Shown here in pieces: positions 48,001 through 54,000 of a stretch of 64,000 bases of DNA. This stretch comes from an uncultured Candidatus Saccharibacteria bacterium (GTDB lineage Bacteria > Patescibacteriota > Minisyncoccia > Ryanbacterales > GWA2-47-10b), in assembly GCA_964356915.1 (NCBI GenBank), contig CAYHJF010000003.1, forward strand, positions 17,579-81,578, in the 5' to 3' direction. The position numbers are program-made. Within the stretch, counting starts at the first letter, position 1. Every line of letters starts with the position of its first letter.

Positions 48001-51000
48001 GCGGTATTGCGAGTGCTTCGCGCGCATCTTCCCGCGAAGGAAGTTCTTCAAACAACCTGAGATCAAATCCGTTTGGCGCAACAAGAATTAATGCCTCCGT
48101 AACCCCATACTGCGCACTGATTCTCTTCTTTTTCTCTTCATTTGTAGATACGATGCCGTGCGCAAACGAAAAAATAATACGATATACAAACGAAGGCATT
48201 TTACCAAGCGAGTGGCACTCAAATACAAAATGCTGACGAAACTTTTTACTCGTAATAAGAAGAAAAAATGCTAACGCAACATCTCGAACATAAAAACATG
48301 TATCATCTGGAGCATTCTGAATAGGAGCGCGAAAACGCCATGCGAGCAGTAAACTTTTAGGCCATACAAAAAAATACGGCCTACCTACCGCAATGATCGG
48401 AAAATTCTTTTTAAGAGCGTATCGCTGCCATATATCCTCGCGCGTTACTCGCATTTCCGATACCCAGAGTTCCGTATCAATACTCTGCGCAAATGCCTCC
48501 GCCATCTTTATTGTCTGGCCTGCATTTGCAAGCGCTGAAGGATACGTAAGCGACGTTACATATCTGATAACCATTATTGTAAGTAATACAAAATGAAGTA
48601 TACTAATGCTACCATGGATTCTCGCAACATTCACGCCATTGGATGCGACCTATCTGATGCGCGGATCCAACACGTACTTAACGAAATTACGAGACTCAAA
48701 AGTCTCGCTCGTCCTGTTGTCTGCCTACCTGACCTACATATAAAAGATCGGACCGAAGCACCATCATCATTTGCAGCCGCCACCCGCGACACAATCGTGC
48801 CCGACCTGACAGCACCATCGGTTGGCTGTGGCATGGGGATTCTCACAACCTCTCTCACAAAAAAAGATCTCGACCATCAGGCATTCGAGCAATTTTACTA
48901 TTTCATGCGCCGCGATCTCGGACCACGATATGGCCATTTAAAAAATATTCTCTTATGGCTTGGTCTCATTGAACGACCAAAAAATACTTACGATCTTTCC
49001 GTTAAAGAATTCGAAGATCTGATCAAACGTGGCGCGCCAATGGCAGTTGAAAAATATAACTTGCCGCCCCAGACTCTCAACCATATTGAAAATCATGGTT
49101 CCGTATTTACTCACGATGAACTCGATTCGCTCAATCTCTCAGATATACTTCCGCGCATTTCGTACCGATCAGGTAGACACGATCTTGGATATGGATTCAA
49201 GGGCAATCATTTTCTTGAGATTCAATATATTGAAGATATTCTTGATGAAGAGGCTGCACAAAAATGGAATTTAAAAAAAGACCAAGTTGTCATCATGTAT
49301 CATGGCGGTGGAGGTGCGGTCTCTTATCATATAGGGAGATACTTTGCGAATCGTAAAAAAAATACCCTAAAGCAAAAGTTTGCCCTTTTTATACTAAAGG
49401 CACTCTTTCACTTTGGAGCACCTACAAAATGGAAATACGCCACGCAACGCTTTCGATATTATTTTTTTCCTCGTCCATTTACAGAAATACCGCTTTCCTC
49501 GCCTGAAGGTCAACGTCTTCTACGCGCAACAAAAGCATCACTAAACTATAGTTATGGGTTTCGTATGGCTATTACAAAACGTATTACTGATAGCCTTCGA
49601 GCGCTCTACCCAAAAAAAGACATCGAAACGGCGCTTCTCTGGGATTCATCACATAATACGGTCACTCGAGAGATTATTGGAGGTGAAGAACTTACCGTAC
49701 ACCGACACACTGCCAATCGAGTATTTGAGGGACAGCCCGTTATTATTTCCGGCTTTAATACAACAAACTCCTACCTTGCCATAGGACAGGCACAATCTGA
49801 AAATCACCTTTTTTCTGCCGACCACGGAGCGGGCACCGTCATCAAGCGTCTCAAAACGCATGAGCATCCTGAACGACTCGTTACTCATATCTACCAAACA
49901 AAATCTCCATTCAAACAGATCGTCACTCATCAAACGAATGAAGGGATTGATCATGTTACTAAAGAACTTACAAGCGCTAGCATCATTCGTCCTGTTATTC
50001 GATTACGTCCTCTCGCCGTATTCAAAGGATAATTATGAAATTCTCTTGCGATAACATTCAAGAACCCTCCATTCGAAAAAAACTGGATCGTATTAATAAG
50101 ATTCAGAGTCTTGCCACACCTCCTCTCTGTCTACCAAACATTCACCCGAAGGAAAAACTAGAATCCCCTCCTCAATTTGTCGCATCCACAGATGGAACAA
50201 TCGTTCCGATGCTTTCTGCGCCAGCAATGAATTGTGGGATGAGCGTTTTCACTACAAGCCTCACAAAAAATGATTTCTCTCCTGAATTTCTTGAAACGTT
50301 TGCAAAAAATATACGTAAAGGTGCCGGACCACGCCGCACCTCAATCGAAGCTTTTCTTACATGGTTTGGATGGAAAGACACTCATCAGTCACGCTATGAT
50401 TTGAGCGTCTCAGAACTTGAAAATATATTTCTTTATGGAGCGCCCGCTGCAATTAAAAAATATAACCTTCCAGAGCAAGAACTCGAGCACATCGAATATG
50501 GAGGTTCCGTGCTCACCGAAAAAGAGCGTCACGCCATACAGCTGAATACTATTATCCCTCGCTCATCATATTCAAATGCACGTCATGAGATGGGATATAA
50601 CTTTGGAGGAAATCACTTCCTTGAATTTCATACGGTAGAACATATCGTTAACCCCCATAAAGCTCAGGCTCTTGGGCTTAAAGAAGGTCAACTACTCCTC
50701 TTTTATCATGGTGGAGGAGGGCATGCGACATATCACCTTGGACGATACTTCGCACGACGTAAAAAAAATACTCCTTTTCAAAAATTTGCGCTCTTTTGGC
50801 TCAAGGCACTTTTTCATTTTAGCTCTACAGAAGGACTGCAACGATTTCACCTTCGGTGGCGCTATTACTTTTCTCGAAAACCTTATCCGGAAATTCCACT
50901 CGACTCTCCCGAAGGACAACGACTCTGGCAATCAATCCAGCTCGCACTCAACTATGGTTATGCATTTCGAGTCGCCCTCTTAAGGCGCATCACTGATGCC

Positions 51001-54000
51001 CTCCCCCATGGTACCGTCTCATTTTTCTGGGACGCCGCTCATAATTCGATTCGCAAAGAACTGATTGATGGGCAAGAAATGATTGTACATCGCCAAGATG
51101 CTGTACGCGTTTTTCCAGACAAACCAATCATGATCACAGGACTCGCAACCACACTTGGCTGTATTGGCGTAGGACGCGAAGGTGCTCAACAAAGTATGTG
51201 GTCTGCGACTCCAAGCGCAACAAAAGTTATTGATGAATATATTCGAGCAGGACGTTCAATAAAAGAATTACCAACACGGGTCAGCTATATTTCAAAACGC
51301 AAAGAACCGAAACTTATCGTAAAAGAACATATGACGAGCGAAGGACTTTTTGACGTCGTTGAGAAACTCGAAAAAGAGAATATTATTGAAGCAGTAGCCT
51401 ATATACGCCCCCTTGGCGGCATTAAGGGTCATTAATCATGGAATCAATCTCTGAACTACGCAAACGTTTACAAGAAGAAAAAGTCCGACCATCTGGCTGG
51501 ACACGACCTTTTGGCTATACAACATTTCAACGAGGCCCCTCAATTTACATCACTCGCGTCCTACTAAAGACCCGTCTTACCCCAAATCATATTACTTTCG
51601 CATGTATCGTAAGTGGCATAATAGGAGCGCTTTTCATGCTTGGACTAGAAACTCCCTGGAAACTCCTTGGAATCATATTTCTCTACTTTAATATCATTCT
51701 TGATAAAGTAGACGGTGAACTCGCTCGCCATCATAATACATTCTCCCTTAAAGGAATTTATTGGGATGAGATTAATCATCTCATCATCCCACCTCTTTTT
51801 TGGATTTTTTCTGCCTACGGCATCCTACACATATCGGTCTTTCAACAAGGACTCTTCATGACTACTGCCGCGCTCGGAGCAATGGCACTTATGGTAAATC
51901 GCATTGTTCATAGTCTCGCGCCTCAAATTTACGCAAAAAAATACATGAAGCACCCGGAACATTTTCCATTTTCAGAAAAAAACATGCAAGACATTTCACT
52001 CTCACCACGTCATCGATTCTCTCTCCTTCGCCCAATCGGACACCTAATCCACCAACTGCAAGATTTTTTTATAATCATCTCACTTAGTAGCCTTGTACTT
52101 ATCTTTGAATACCTATTCAGACGAGACTACATATTTCATCCAATTTTTGGATGGTACATCGTCGGGATGAGCATACTATTCATTCTTTTTGCATGCGAAA
52201 ATATGTTACGCAAAGGAGCTCTCGTCACCCAACATATCGAAGATATTAACGCCTCCCGCAAATAATTTCTTCAAACTGATGATTCACGATCTCAAGAGAG
52301 TACTGAGAAACCCATATCTTACCGCTCTCAGCCAATTGCTCTCGTAACTCTTGATCACCAAGTAACTTCCTAATGGCAGCAGCGAAAAGGTCTGGACTTT
52401 GCTCGAGAATAAACTCCTGCGCTTCTCGTGGCAGAATTTCACGTACACCCCCGACATCTGAAGCAACGATCGGAACGCCCAAAGCCATCGCCTCTAACAC
52501 CACGTGAGGAAACCCCTCTTCTTCTGAAGGCATAAAAAAAAGATCTGAGGCCGCAAAATACATAGGGACATCTTCATATGGAATCTCTCCAACCTCTCGT
52601 ATATTTTTTCCAACAAACGTATGCTCAAGAGGACCAGAACCTCCAATAATAAATTCTACTGATGAATCGTTAATAAACGTCTCGGCAGTTGGCGCAATCA
52701 TATGCGCACCTTTTCGCCTTGAAAGATGATGTAAAAAGAAAATGACCTTTTTTTCTTCATCAATATGAAGTCGCTCACGTGCCTCTTTTTTTCTACCACT
52801 CCACGCGGTAAATCGAGCGTGATCAATCCAATTTGGAAGAACTGCCACTCGACTAGGATTAAGCGCGTACTGCTTTATATATGAATACTTCATGCCTTCA
52901 GTCCCCGTAACAAGCGTAGATTTGCGAAGCGCAAAACGAAATACCCGTTCCTCAACCCATTGACGTCTATATAACCACGGCATACCACAATTCCAATAGA
53001 AACTACGTCCAAAAAGTGGAGCTAAAATCCCCCCGACAAAAGAATAATGCACCCAAAAAACTCTATACCCTCGAAGTCGCAACATAAAAAAACGAACAAA
53101 CATTTCAAGTATACGCAAAGGCAATGACCGAAACCACATAAGACGTGCCCCCGGAAAATCAATCGGGGCTTCACCTCGCTCAATAAGAAGCACCACGTCA
53201 TGGTGCTCACGTATTGATTTTATAAACTGATAATTATAATAAAAATGCGTCCCAATATTTCGACGGTACTCTGGCAATATATATACAATTTTCATACGTT
53301 CCTCGTACATCTCACCAATAAATCTTTAAACATTAAGAGGTACTCTTCCTGTGTGGATAACGTCTGAGCTTTTTTATATGCTTCTGTTCCAATACCCCAT
53401 CGTATACTAAAATCTTTTCGTACACGTAAAAGCTCTCGCAAAAAATTACCCTCGTCCCCCACCTCAACAACAAGACCTGAAATATTATCCTTGAGGAGCT
53501 CGCCCACAACTCCGACATCGGTCGTCACAATCGGCATACCAGAGGCCATGGCCTGCACTAAACTCAAACCATATCCCTCATACCACGAGGCGGATACAAA
53601 GCAATGATCTGAGGCAAAAAAACGCACCGGATCATCAATCCAACCTTCAAATTGTACGTGGGTACCAAGCTTTTGTATGCGGACATAATCCTCAAGCATC
53701 GCGCGTTCTGGCCCATCTCCCACAATACGCAACAACGTTCTTGGATAATCTTTCAGTATCCTTTCAAAGGCTCTAATGATCATCAAGATATTTTTTTCCT
53801 GAGAAAGTCGAGAAGCCACAAGAAACACAAACTCTCCGACCGGATCTTCGTACGATCGATGAGCTCCAACCTCATAATAACTCCCTAACTCGACTGTAAT
53901 CGGTAATATATCAACGGGTCGACGAGTATGGATAGTGCGCTTGATGCGCTCACTCACAACACGAATACGTGAGGCACGCTTAAGAAGCATTTGAGCAATA

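Follow-up and report, generated by a model that had tools for sequence, protein, structure and literature searches.

A Conserved Gene Module of RtcB-like Proteins and a His-Type CDP-Alcohol Phosphotransferase in Bacterial Polysaccharide Clusters

Gene Organization of the Locus

The window, i.e., the whole stretch of DNA analysed here, comprises 64,000 nucleotides from an uncultured Candidatus Saccharibacteria bacterium. Inside a Patescibacteria glycan island it carries three co-directional genes: RtcB-like A, RtcB-like B and a CDP-alcohol phosphotransferase (Table 1). An earlier note had described a tandem RtcB-like pair followed by a CDP-alcohol phosphatidyltransferase at 48593-52265, and the open reading frames lie exactly there. 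The gap between the two RtcB homologues, given as 3 bp in that note, is 2 nt according to the ORF coordinates (tt), as is the gap between B and the transferase gene (tc). Translation of A probably starts at Met8 (48614), which is also the start of the NCBI gene model (P0001, 472 aa).

The unit is closed by a convergent GT4 gene, an arrangement that recurs in two other loci (L003, L022). Three divergently transcribed glycosyltransferase genes lie on the other side; as genomic context, the same GT4/GT2/PMT_2 trio also flanks the module in the Patescibacteria loci L001 and L003. The surroundings encode glycosyltransferases (GT4, GT2, PMT_2), Bac_transf, Wzy, Wzx, DegT, dehydratases and proteins of a similar kind. 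A few non-glycan genes are found nearby (MurB, VTC/DUF4956, nitroreductase, NUDIX and surface LTD/PKD/TPR proteins). The claim that RNA-processing partners are missing agrees with the scan of the window, which found no tRNA genes, no Rfam matches and, in the ORFs of 150 aa or longer, no RNA-repair families.

Table 1. Positions of the three-gene unit, its neighbours and selected codons in the window (Pho, P. horikoshii RtcB).
Feature	Position	Strand	Remark
PMT_2 GT-C glycosyltransferase	45468-46772	-	divergently transcribed neighbour
GT2 resembling polyprenol-phosphate glycosyltransferases	46760-47482	-	divergently transcribed neighbour
GT4	47498-48634	-	divergently transcribed neighbour
RtcB-like A, catalytic type	48593..50032	+	ORF, 479 aa; Pfam RtcB
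A, D47	48731-3	+	
A, S76	48818-20	+	for Pho Asp95
A, C79	48827-9	+	
A, N205/H206	49205-10	+	
A, E209	49217-9	+	
A, H237	49301-3	+	
A, G241	49313-5	+	for Arg238
A, H354	49652-4	+	
A, S393	49769-71	+	
A, H411	49823-5	+	nucleophile
A, T415	49835-7	+	for Arg408
A, K478	50024-6	+	
RtcB-like B, His-less paralogue	50035..51435	+	ORF, 466 aa; Pfam RtcB
B, Pro393	51211-13	+	for nucleophilic H404
His-type CDP-alcohol phosphotransferase, membrane protein	51438..52265	+	ORF, 275 aa; Pfam CDP-OH_P_transf
Transferase signature, D89 to H114	51702-51779	+	
GT4 glycosyltransferase	52246..53310	-	convergent; 3' end overlaps transferase gene by 20 nt

Family, Fold and Active-Site Residues

Both A (5e-53, 181 bits) and B (1.6e-32, 114 bits) exceed the Pfam RtcB cut-off of 27 bits, and they are 43% identical to each other. 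Their AlphaFold models (pLDDT 89.9 and 92.6, respectively) gave significant PDB matches to RtcB structures only, the match to 4dwq being 4e-28 with TM 0.70 for A and 2.4e-26 with TM 0.68 for B. The RtcB family and fold assigned in the earlier note are thereby confirmed, and its assignment of the third gene holds as well (Pfam CDP-OH_P_transf, 38.2 bits; cut-off 22). Scores against the NCBIfam RtcB equivalog models are far under the cut-offs (112 vs. 407 bits).

The active-site columns of A and B were mapped on P. horikoshii RtcB, whose numbering is used for the retained residues. A retains D65, C98, N202/H203, F204, E206, H234, H329/N330, S385, H404 (DHGAGT) and K480. The Cys and the GNHF, HxGxxG, HN and HGAG His residues ascribed to it from the sequence are thus present (C98/H203/H234/H329/H404), and the two replacements ascribed to it, of a metal-ligand Asp by Ser and of an Arg by Thr, correspond to D95->S76 and R408->T415. 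Arg238/Arg190/Gln194 are Gly/Ser/Asp in A. In canonical RtcB, Cys98/His234/His329 are the M1 ligands, Glu206/Lys480 contact the guanine, and Asp95 is a ligand of M2, which touches the GTP beta/gamma phosphates (PMC9745838). Arg238/Arg190/Gln194 hold the RNA 5'-OH strand, and Asn202 positions the attacking hydroxyl during the sealing step; the E. coli counterpart of R238 has a ~200-fold effect on sealing and only a 3-fold effect on ppG formation (PMC8051266).

These features extend to the module proteins of other genomes. All catalytic-type members keep H404, H234, H329, E206 and K480 and have lost R238, R190 and Q194; the bridging C98 is kept except in the P0220-type, which has Asp there. Asn202 is invariant among the module RtcB-likes. 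In every member D95 is replaced (S/A/T/G) and Arg408 is lost, whereas eight canonical RtcB representatives retain Asp95, Arg408 and the residues of the 5'-OH strand. Because the M2 ligand is replaced throughout, guanylylation competence of the module proteins is not assured.

In B, the nucleophilic His is replaced by Pro (TPSAT), with the further substitutions D65->N and D95->A. B still has the Cys, the metal-ligand His residues and Glu206/Lys480 for contact with the guanine. The Pro, read as WSATPSAT in the earlier note, is conserved in ~30 B-clade sequences, so that a sequencing error is excluded. Since the clade also keeps 55-63% identity and invariant metal ligands, and the AlphaFold model is confident, B is not decaying; it may be a non-catalytic partner, or 'pseudo-enzyme'.

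The transferase carries the signature D89-K-V-D-G-E-L-A-R-x8-G-x3-D110-E-I-N-H114, with His114 in the position of the fourth signature Asp of the CDP-alcohol phosphotransferase motif. This His is a subfamily trait. The nearest solved relatives are IPCT-DIPPS (4mnd, 1.4e-16) and AF2299 (4o6m, 3e-10), and the closest named relatives are the AIP, PIP and DIPP synthases, the products of which keep a terminal phosphate. The family is known with cytidine donors, and to our knowledge a guanosine-linked donor is unprecedented for it.

Conservation of the Module across Genomes

The RtcB-like gene together with the His-type CDP-alcohol phosphotransferase gene constitutes a conserved module, which is new here; no paper describing this pairing was found. 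Of the 44 His-type transferase genes preceded by 1.5 kb or more of DNA, 43 have an RtcB-like gene directly upstream (within 2.5 kb), as against 0/8 ordinary D/G-type transferase genes taken as a control. The order A, optionally B, then transferase on one strand occurs in 11/12 informative GTDB-representative loci and also in L001-L003 and L022. The module loci are spread over several bacterial phyla and range in GC content from 22% to 71%.

The neighbourhood survey proposed in the earlier note places the RtcB-like subclade in polysaccharide clusters; in the loci examined, neither tRNA nor RNA-repair genes (rtcA, rtcR, archease, prfH) lie beside it. In Candidatus Eisenbacteria a Wzx-RtcB-like fusion is followed by the His-type transferase within a Wzz/Wzy/Bac_transf cluster. 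Another locus (P0120) holds Wzx, RtcB-like, transferase and Wzy genes, and Wzx is directly upstream in L097 and L098. A sister RtcB-like clade has an HprK-related kinase-like partner together with Wzx, and lacks a CDP-OH gene; P0207 carries the kinase-like and RtcB-like parts as a fusion, and in L106 and L107 they lie side by side. Departures from the pattern are a locus with A and no transferase within 10 kb (L017), a lone His-type transferase that has no RtcB-like or nucleotidyltransferase gene in its vicinity (L020), and one lineage in which the transferase is adjoined by the His-less B type only, with no A within 8 kb (L021/L063).

In RtcB-less His-type loci with readable context, the RtcB slot is occupied by a LicC-like or TagD-like alcohol-phosphate cytidylyltransferase, a displacement pattern drawn from only two independent lineages. 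L077 has a LicC-like NTP_transferase in the slot (1jyk, 1.4e-20), and in L108/L109 a gap of 4 nt separates the transferase gene from an upstream TagD/ECT-like CTP_transf_like gene (3elb, 7.8e-17; 1coz, 1.1e-13). A LicC-like gene is also directly upstream in the ordinary-type relatives L086 and L103. The order activator, then transferase is the general pattern in this branch of the transferase family. No nucleotidyltransferase is adjacent to the module in the RtcB-module loci.

Proposed Function of the Module

The pairing recurs across phyla in the slot of the ordinary activating enzymes; therefore, these RtcB relatives most likely have a part in making the cell envelope and not in RNA repair. 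As judged from sequence comparison, the balance leans towards the three genes being an 'activate-and-transfer' module for a phosphodiester-linked envelope component. We infer the following scheme, which covers the reaction, GTP as its nucleotide, the direction in which the product flows and the part played by B. A would run only the first two RtcB steps: His411 would take GMP from GTP and attach it to the phosphate group of X-P, a phosphomonoester that is not a nucleic acid; the product would be G(5')pp-X, a GDP-alcohol. The His-type transferase in the membrane would consume this donor, moving P-X to an acceptor hydroxyl on a lipid or lipid-linked glycan with release of GMP. B, which cannot be guanylylated and keeps its metal and guanine sites, may act as a non-catalytic binding or hand-over subunit beside the transferase. 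The retention of Glu206/Lys480 makes guanosine rather than cytidine the probable donor nucleotide. A repurposed nucleotidyl-transfer enzyme and a pseudo-enzyme feeding a CDP-alcohol phosphotransferase had already been suggested for this DNA. All comparative tests run agree with that proposal, which gains support from the near-obligatory adjacency, the polysaccharide context, the slot displacement, the RtcB fold and the clade-wide His-to-Pro change.

Precedents exist for parts of this scheme. CofC/FbiD of F420 biosynthesis converts GTP and 2-phospholactate or PEP into a guanosine-diphospho-X donor, and CofD/FbiA moves the phospho-X part onto an alcohol. They are a precedent for guanosine-activated phospho-alcohol donors. 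This pathway differs from the module in using an activator of the MobA-like nucleotidyltransferase fold and a soluble transferase with no relation to PF01066, and in making a cofactor instead of an envelope component. The LicC/TagD/ECT-type cytidylyltransferases of the CDP-choline, CDP-glycerol and CDP-ethanolamine pathways, which take the RtcB slot in some loci, have the net reaction proposed for the module (X-P + NTP -> NDP-X + PPi). Their fold is unrelated, and they transfer NMP directly, whereas RtcB chemistry passes through a covalent enzyme-His-GMP. In IPCT-DIPPS an NDP-alcohol-making enzyme is fused to the membrane transferase using its product, which resembles the module in logic and order. 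Both IPCT-DIPPS and AF2299 are archaeal CDP-alcohol phosphotransferases whose N-terminal domain is cytoplasmic; the module differs from IPCT-DIPPS in its activator, which has the RtcB fold and a gene of its own instead of being a nucleotidyltransferase-fold domain, and from both in the His of its transferase signature.

Canonical RtcB (P. horikoshii PH1602, E. coli RtcB, human RTCB) shares its Pfam family and fold with A and B, and shares with A the HGAG His404 nucleophile, Cys98/His234/His329, His203, Asn202 and Glu206/Lys480. It differs from A at Asp95 (Ser), Arg238/Arg190/Gln194 (Gly/Ser/Asp) and Arg408 (not conserved), and from the module as a whole in that the latter lies in polysaccharide clusters beside a membrane phosphotransferase and includes B, which has no nucleophile. 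E. coli RtcB is able to stop after step 2, leaving a stable DNA3'pp5'G cap (PMC4381079, PMC4499129), and M. xanthus RtcB paralogues are capping-prone (PMC10630183). In these enzymes, as proposed for A, a phosphomonoester is guanylylated and X-pp-G released, but the substrate is a nucleic-acid end and there is no link to membrane transferases or glycan loci.

Alternative Explanations

It is possible, though rather unlikely, that the RtcB-like protein acts after the transferase as a ligase. The transferase, or the kinase-like protein of the sister module, would install a terminal phosphomonoester on a lipid-linked intermediate, which the RtcB-like protein would guanylylate and seal to a hydroxyl in three full steps, giving a phosphodiester bridge in the glycan. 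The terminal-phosphate products of the AIP/PIP/DIPP synthases are in line with this, and the sister module fits a 'phosphate installer plus ligase' logic without a CDP-OH gene. The Wzx fusion would set the RtcB-like domain at a lipid-linked substrate, and the invariant Asn202 suits a ligase equally well because it acts in the sealing step. Against it, the slot of RtcB-less loci holds makers of NDP-alcohols and not ligases or kinases, a separate CDP-alcohol source would still be needed where no nucleotidyltransferase is adjacent, and the activator-first order is general in this family branch.

More doubtful still is the activation of a lipid phosphate, with polyprenyl phosphate or phosphatidic acid as X-P. 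The RtcB-like protein would make G-pp-lipid, comparable to CDP-diacylglycerol, and the transferase would then join the lipid-phosphate to a sugar or an alcohol, so that a glycan is anchored or primed. The classic donors of the family are indeed lipid-pp-nucleosides (CDP-diacylglycerol and CDP-archaeol among the named matches), fusion or tight adjacency to the Wzx flippase brings the RtcB-like domain to the membrane, and the module loci of different phyla share no conserved gene that would make a small X-P. However, no membrane segments are predicted in A or B, and the displacing LicC-like and TagD/ECT-like enzymes use small soluble alcohol phosphates, not lipids.

That A is an RNA 3'-phosphate/5'-OH ligase (tRNA/rRNA repair or, in Patescibacteria, intron splicing) found by chance in a glycan island, with B a decaying duplicate, is very improbable: the Pfam membership and fold of both proteins and the nucleophile, most metal ligands and guanine contacts of A are what it would predict, but it is contradicted by the cross-phylum adjacency and its control, the flippase fusion, the module-wide loss of the 5'-OH-strand residues, Asp95 and Arg408, the sub-equivalog scores, a window free of the RNA-related features searched for, and the conservation of B.

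The three-gene unit and its family assignment

Two RtcB-like genes and a CDP-alcohol phosphotransferase gene follow one another on the forward strand of the window. They are called here A (RtcB-like, catalytic type), B (the RtcB-like paralogue lacking the nucleophilic His) and C (the transferase). With a divergent GT4 gene on one side and a convergent GT4 gene on the other, A-B-C is a self-contained three-gene unit. The gaps A/B and B/C are 2 nt each, which corrects the 3 bp given between the tandem RtcB genes in the earlier note. In the NCBI model, A starts at Met8 (48614) and the protein (P0001) has 472 aa. 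In its longest form, the ORF of A shares 42 nt (48593-48634) with the divergent GT4 gene, whose GTG start codon lies in the overlap. A promoter and terminator scan of 48200-52600 stayed at chance level (10 vs 8.3 expected, 5 vs 3.9) and is uninformative on the operon.

The families proposed earlier, two RtcB homologs and a CDP-alcohol phosphatidyltransferase in tandem, are borne out by Pfam for the ORFs listed in the table. A and B match the RtcB profile (PF01139) over their full length, A at 5e-53 and 181.3 bits and B at 1.6e-32 and 113.7 bits, the cut-off being 27; their mutual identity is 43%. The AlphaFold models (pLDDT 89.9 for A and 92.6 for B) had significant matches in the PDB to RtcB chains only (4dwq; TM of about 0.7), so that the predicted fold is that of RtcB. 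None of A, B and C reached the NCBIfam equivalog cut-offs. The best RtcB equivalog score was that of NF007153 (111.8 bits vs 407); TIGR03073 gave 81.7 vs 271.8. As the NCBIfam matches, RtcB and AIP/PIP/DIPP-synthase, are only sub-threshold, an equivalog assignment is impossible.

Features of the window and of related loci (L), with positions in each sequence
Sequence	Positions	Strand	Feature
Window	8924-10408		PMT_2-type GT-C glycosyltransferase
Window	10405-12145		Split transketolase (N-terminal gene and pyrimidine/C-terminal gene)
Window	15813-17105		PMT_2-type GT-C glycosyltransferase
Window	17853-20192		779-aa protein, CotH kinase domain and right-handed beta-helix
Window	20189-22903		904-aa fusion, PMT_2-type GT-C glycosyltransferase and PQQ-type beta-propeller
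Window	23461-26608		Carbamoyltransferase and GDSL-lipase pair
Window	30529-31887		452-aa nitroreductase-domain protein
Window	33491-34887		VTC-domain protein (polyphosphate-polymerase-like) and DUF4956 protein
Window	35479-36801		PMT_2-type GT-C glycosyltransferase
Window	45468-46772		PMT_2-type GT-C glycosyltransferase
Window	47498-48634	-	Divergent GT4 gene, upstream bracket of the unit
Window	48593-50032	+	A, 479-aa ORF, RtcB-like
Window	50035-51435	+	B, 466-aa ORF, RtcB-like, intact
Window	51438-52265	+	C, 275-aa ORF, CDP-OH_P_transf
Window	52246-53310	-	Convergent GT4 gene, downstream bracket of the unit
L001	13803-17308		Carbamoyltransferase and GDSL-lipase pair, joined by an SxtJ-like gene
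L021	6464-9355		B-type gene, His-type transferase, methyltransferase
L022	5432-6558		Small genes between A and B
L024	8001-10658		Sister-clade RtcB-like protein P0207 (Chloroflexota)
L063	8029-10363		B-type gene, His-type transferase, methyltransferase
L067	7246-10816		Reversed tandem
L086	1914-4628; 9543-10749		Tandem pair of ordinary-type transferases
L106	5917-8506		Sister-clade RtcB-like locus
L107	1143-4671		Sister-clade RtcB-like locus

Active site of A

A and B were mapped onto the RtcB of P. horikoshii, whose numbering is used for the columns, through PDB alignments. In RtcB, metal M1 is bound by Cys98/His234/His329 and M2 by Asp95/Cys98/His203, with Glu206 and Lys480 contacting guanine (PMC9745838). 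The 5'-OH strand is held by Arg238, Arg190 and Gln194; the E. coli counterpart of Arg238 has a ~200-fold effect on sealing and only a 3-fold effect on ppG formation (PMC8051266).

The nucleophile His404 (E. coli His337) is present in A as H411 (DHGAGT) and is invariant across the A clade. A further keeps Asp65, the bridging Cys98 (C79), Asn202/His203 (N205/H206) and the M1 ligands His234 (H237) and His329 (H354), M1 being complete in both A and B. The guanine contacts are retained as E209 and K478 in A and by their equivalents in B, and are invariant across both clades. M2 is incomplete. Asp95 is Ser76 in A, Ala in B and S/A/T/G in all members of the module (RtcB-like gene or genes plus His-type transferase), whereas the column is Asp in the 8 canonical representatives. 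The residues holding the 5'-OH strand are replaced in A: Arg238 by Gly241, Arg190 by Ser193 and Gln194 by Asp197. The Arg238 column is Gly in nearly all module members vs Arg in 8/8 canonical representatives, seven of which have Gln194; the Arg190 column is variable among them. Arg408 is Thr415 in A, and both Arg408 and Arg412 are kept by the canonical sequences, all eight of which read D-H-D-C ... R238 ... H-G-A-G-R-R-K, but not by module members. The residues listed are invariant among 26 A-type sequences. Loss of Asp95 and of the strand residues together with retention of the guanine contacts is common to all RtcB-like proteins of the module. Judged from these alignments, A shares the nucleophile and guanine contacts with canonical RtcB and departs from the characterised members in the M2 Asp and the strand-binding residues.

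An Eisenbacteria-type group (L023, L081, L085, L091, L092, L097, L098, L101) has Cys98 replaced by Asp besides the replacement of Asp95, with the signature D-H-S/A-D, which points to a differently built metal centre.

The His-less paralogue B

In B, Asp65 is replaced by Asn, Asp95 by Ala and His404 by Pro393 (TPSAT). The loss of the nucleophilic His to Pro, claimed earlier for the second RtcB of the window, extends to about 30 B-type sequences, in which the position reads P-S-A-G/A/T. A sequencing error is ruled out, since the change is clade-wide together with neighbouring ones (HGAG to PSAG/PSAT). A decaying pseudogene is ruled out by the intact ORF, the invariant metal ligands, orthologues 55-63% identical and a confident model; by this comparison, B is conserved and not decaying. 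The E. coli His337Ala protein is inert for guanylylation and ligation and has only basal cyclic phosphodiesterase activity (PMC3458531). With Pro393 at this position, B would thus be no ligase by the known mechanism.

B lies nearly always directly before the transferase gene, at gaps of 3-190 nt. Where one to three small genes (e.g. DUF5674 and two ORFs of ~110 aa in L022) separate A from B, B stays beside the transferase; small genes also occur between A and B in further Patescibacteria loci, L007, L009, L010, L011, L013, L027 and L030. In L001/L008/L046, B and the transferase are separated by a gene for a TPR protein. In L067, the His-less copy comes first (Asn at the nucleophile, NSAS), followed by the catalytic copy and the transferase. 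In one lineage (L021 and L063), the only RtcB-like gene before the His-type transferase is of B type, with no A-type gene within 8 kb.

The His-type transferase

C scored 38.2 bits against PF01066 (cut-off 22). The signature of this family is D1xxD2GxxAR...GxxxD3xxxD4; C reads D-x-x-D-G-x-x-A-R-x8-G-x3-D-x3-H, with D1, D2, G, A, R, G and D3 present and His114 at D4. This His is invariant in the family alignment (A3) and in all orthologues taken from the loci, and virtually all of the 61+19 homologues with a readable motif have it. The solved structures closest to the His-type family profile are AF2299 (1.4e-16) and the bifunctional IPCT-DIPPS (3e-10), whose fourth Asp aligns with the His; unlike the module transferase, characterised PF01066 members have Asp there. 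A crude hydropathy scan gave four hydrophobic segments in C. By its motif, the transferase is a special subfamily of PF01066, set apart by the change of the fourth Asp to His.

A sister family of ordinary type is encoded by tandem CDP-OH transferase genes in L086, L095 and L102, the fourth signature position being Asp in one copy and Gly in the other. In L086, a LicC-like nucleotidyltransferase lies ahead of each transferase.

Pairing of the genes across genomes

Scanning the genome collection with the sequence of A alone gave no matches, and the loci were found by an alignment-based scan. Among GTDB species representatives, it returned 16 RtcB-like A loci, labelled Ryanbacteria, Giovannonibacteria, Campbellbacteria, Parcubacteria and 'Saccharibacteria'. 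In 11 of the 12 with enough downstream DNA, the genes lie on one strand in the order A, none to three small genes, B and His-type transferase, or A and transferase without B (L014, L015); the exception is L017, with A alone. The same order was found in L001-L003 and L022. A metagenome scan from the transferase side yielded 80 loci with 72 His-type genes. Of the His-type genes, 44 have at least 1.5 kb of upstream DNA, and 43 of these are preceded on their own strand by an RtcB-like gene no more than 2.5 kb away. The pattern also picked up 8 ordinary D/G-type genes, and these have no such neighbour. The putative activator gene of the 43 loci is directly upstream of the transferase gene, typically at 3-190 nt. 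The GC content of module loci spans 22-71%. L020 has the transferase alone.

In Candidatus Eisenbacteria, protein P0220 (996 aa) joins a Wzx flippase and an RtcB-like domain in one chain; a His-type transferase comes after it, and both belong to a Wzz / PatA / DegT / Bac_transf / Wzy / GT4 cluster. Another locus has Bac_transf and, further on, Wzx, a PglD-like gene, the RtcB-like gene, the transferase and Wzy; in L097 and L098, Wzx is directly upstream of the RtcB-like gene. The RtcB-like and transferase pair of L021/L063 lies among housekeeping genes (trmD, rpsP, smc); the two genes are thus linked to each other rather than to the island itself.

A sister RtcB-like clade (P0190, P0203, P0207; loci L024, L106 and L107) adjoins Wzx without a CDP-OH gene and has a fused or adjacent HprK-related P-loop kinase-like protein with the motif GLPGxGKTT. 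It looks like a second, kinase-linked RtcB-like module. The N-terminal half of P0207 has no significant Pfam match and only a sub-threshold NCBIfam match to HprK-related kinase; it is homologous to neighbouring proteins in L106 and L107 (tblastn). L106 also holds a UbiA-family gene and a PPDK/PEP-utilizer gene.

Putative activators in the place of the RtcB-like protein

Just one His-type locus, L077, combines a long upstream sequence with the absence of an RtcB-like gene. Two genes lie immediately before its transferase. One codes for an NTP_transferase, and the solved structure nearest to it is LicC, the CTP:phosphocholine cytidylyltransferase (1.4e-20). The other gene matches the C-terminal half of PEP synthase. 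Relatives of the L077 transferase are also of His type. One of them, P0337 (L108/L109), is preceded at 4 nt by a gene for a 153-aa cytidylyltransferase resembling the ethanolamine-phosphate (7.8e-17) and glycerol-3-phosphate (1.1e-13) enzymes; as in the window, a divergent GT gene lies upstream. In the controls of ordinary type, L086 and L103, the transferase is immediately preceded by a LicC-like gene. No adjacent nucleotidyltransferase was found in RtcB-module loci, and the conventional activator folds (NTP_transferase, CTP_transf_like) are limited to the RtcB-less relatives L077 and L108/L109. Cytidylyltransferases in the slot of RtcB suggest a pattern for this branch, in which a maker of NDP-alcohol is followed by a membrane transferase using it. 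In most His-type members, an RtcB-like protein holds the first of these two positions.

Proposed mechanism and alternatives

The module very probably serves envelope biosynthesis and not RNA repair. For its action, we lean slightly towards an activate-and-transfer mechanism. A would take GMP from GTP to form His411-GMP, as suggested by the retained guanine contacts, and pass it to a phosphomonoester, X-P, giving guanosine-diphospho-X, G(5')pp-X. Loss of the 5'-OH-strand residues fits the loss of the sealing step. RtcB is already known to leave stable DNA3'pp5'G caps (PMC4381079, PMC4499129). The His-type transferase would then move P-X onto a membrane-associated acceptor, and B would probably bind the nucleotide-linked intermediate or the transferase. 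As Asp95 is replaced in all module members, the guanylylation competence of A is not assured.

The main alternative, which we consider unlikely, is that the transferase or the kinase-like protein installs a phosphate and that the RtcB-like enzyme then carries out a real ligation, its substrate being a lipid-linked intermediate. This alternative draws on the points that fit activate-and-transfer poorly: the general replacement of Asp95, the known nucleotide of the CDP-alcohol phosphotransferase family (cytidine and not guanosine), the loci with B type only (L021/L063), A alone (L017) or transferase alone (L020), and the invariance of Asn202, a residue of the sealing step (PMC8051266). The sister clade, where the RtcB-like protein is paired with the kinase-like protein and Wzx, belongs with these points. 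A lipid-phosphate variant, with G-pp-polyprenol or G-pp-diacylglycerol as the donor, is improbable. An ordinary RNA ligase lying there by chance is very unlikely. Chance adjacency within a large glycan island is ruled out by the persistence of the pair in the non-glycan context of L021 and across phyla. The tRNA scan and Rfam gave no match in the window, and no RNA-repair family (rtcA/rtcR, archease, prfH-type partners) was found among its ORFs of at least 150 aa, in agreement with the earlier claim that RNA-processing partners are missing nearby. Nor is the subclade scattered beside tRNA or RNA-repair genes: the related loci examined have no RNA-repair partner or RNA genes.

The activate-and-transfer mechanism can be extended to a wider reading, to which we give an even chance. 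RtcB-type His-GMP chemistry would have been recruited outside nucleic acids to make guanosine-diphospho-X donors, and His-variant CDP-alcohol phosphotransferases would use these donors for phosphodiester-linked groups on envelope glycans or lipids, with the His-less paralogue as a dedicated partner. The module is widespread in Patescibacteria and present at least also in Eisenbacteria, with a kinase-linked relative in Chloroflexota and occasional fusion to Wzx.

Relation to known systems

The working logic of the module would be the same as that of IPCT-DIPPS or of LicC/TagD with a transferase, but its activator has the RtcB fold and is structurally unrelated. The established view of RtcB is that of an enzyme joining nucleic-acid ends. 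No paper linking it with CDP-alcohol transferases, phosphatidyltransferase, Patescibacteria or polysaccharide loci came up in full-text searches. If the proposal is true, a large conserved RtcB branch acts on non-nucleic-acid phosphates, widening the reach of His-GMP and 3'-pp-G chemistry, and there is a third, structurally unrelated way to NDP-alcohol donors. A His-variant branch of CDP-alcohol phosphotransferases would also be defined, as would an undescribed phosphodiester-linked surface decoration in Patescibacteria, whose envelopes mediate the episymbiotic lifestyle and are barely characterised. The labels that these genes now carry, 'tRNA-splicing ligase RtcB' and 'phosphatidylglycerophosphate synthase', amount to a systematic annotation error, which is corrected here. 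Purified proteins would allow a direct test of the hypothesis.

Surroundings in the window

The window, from a Patescibacteria MAG, is taken up by a very large glycan island. Besides numerous GT2 and GT4 genes, it has Bac_transf, Wzy-TPR, Wzx, DegT, dehydratases and a carbamoyltransferase. The description of the surroundings as entirely glycan biosynthesis holds for the island at large and fails for the VTC/DUF4956 pair and the nitroreductase-domain protein, which are not obvious glycan genes. This pair is preceded by a 534-aa ORF without a Pfam match and by the nitroreductase-domain gene. The carbamoyltransferase/GDSL-lipase pair lies near the module in two Patescibacteria loci, the window and L001, and may be a further conserved decoration step. 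Five PMT_2 genes in 64 kb, several of them adjoining small GT2 genes, suggest many parallel extracytoplasmic glycosylation steps; the PMT_2/beta-propeller fusion adjoins the CotH/beta-helix gene. The split transketolase is next to epimerase/dehydratase genes in the sugar-modification part. Almost throughout the window, the GC skew has strongly negative values (about -0.1 to -0.25); it changes sign near 60 kb, where the GC content also climbs to 0.47-0.49.
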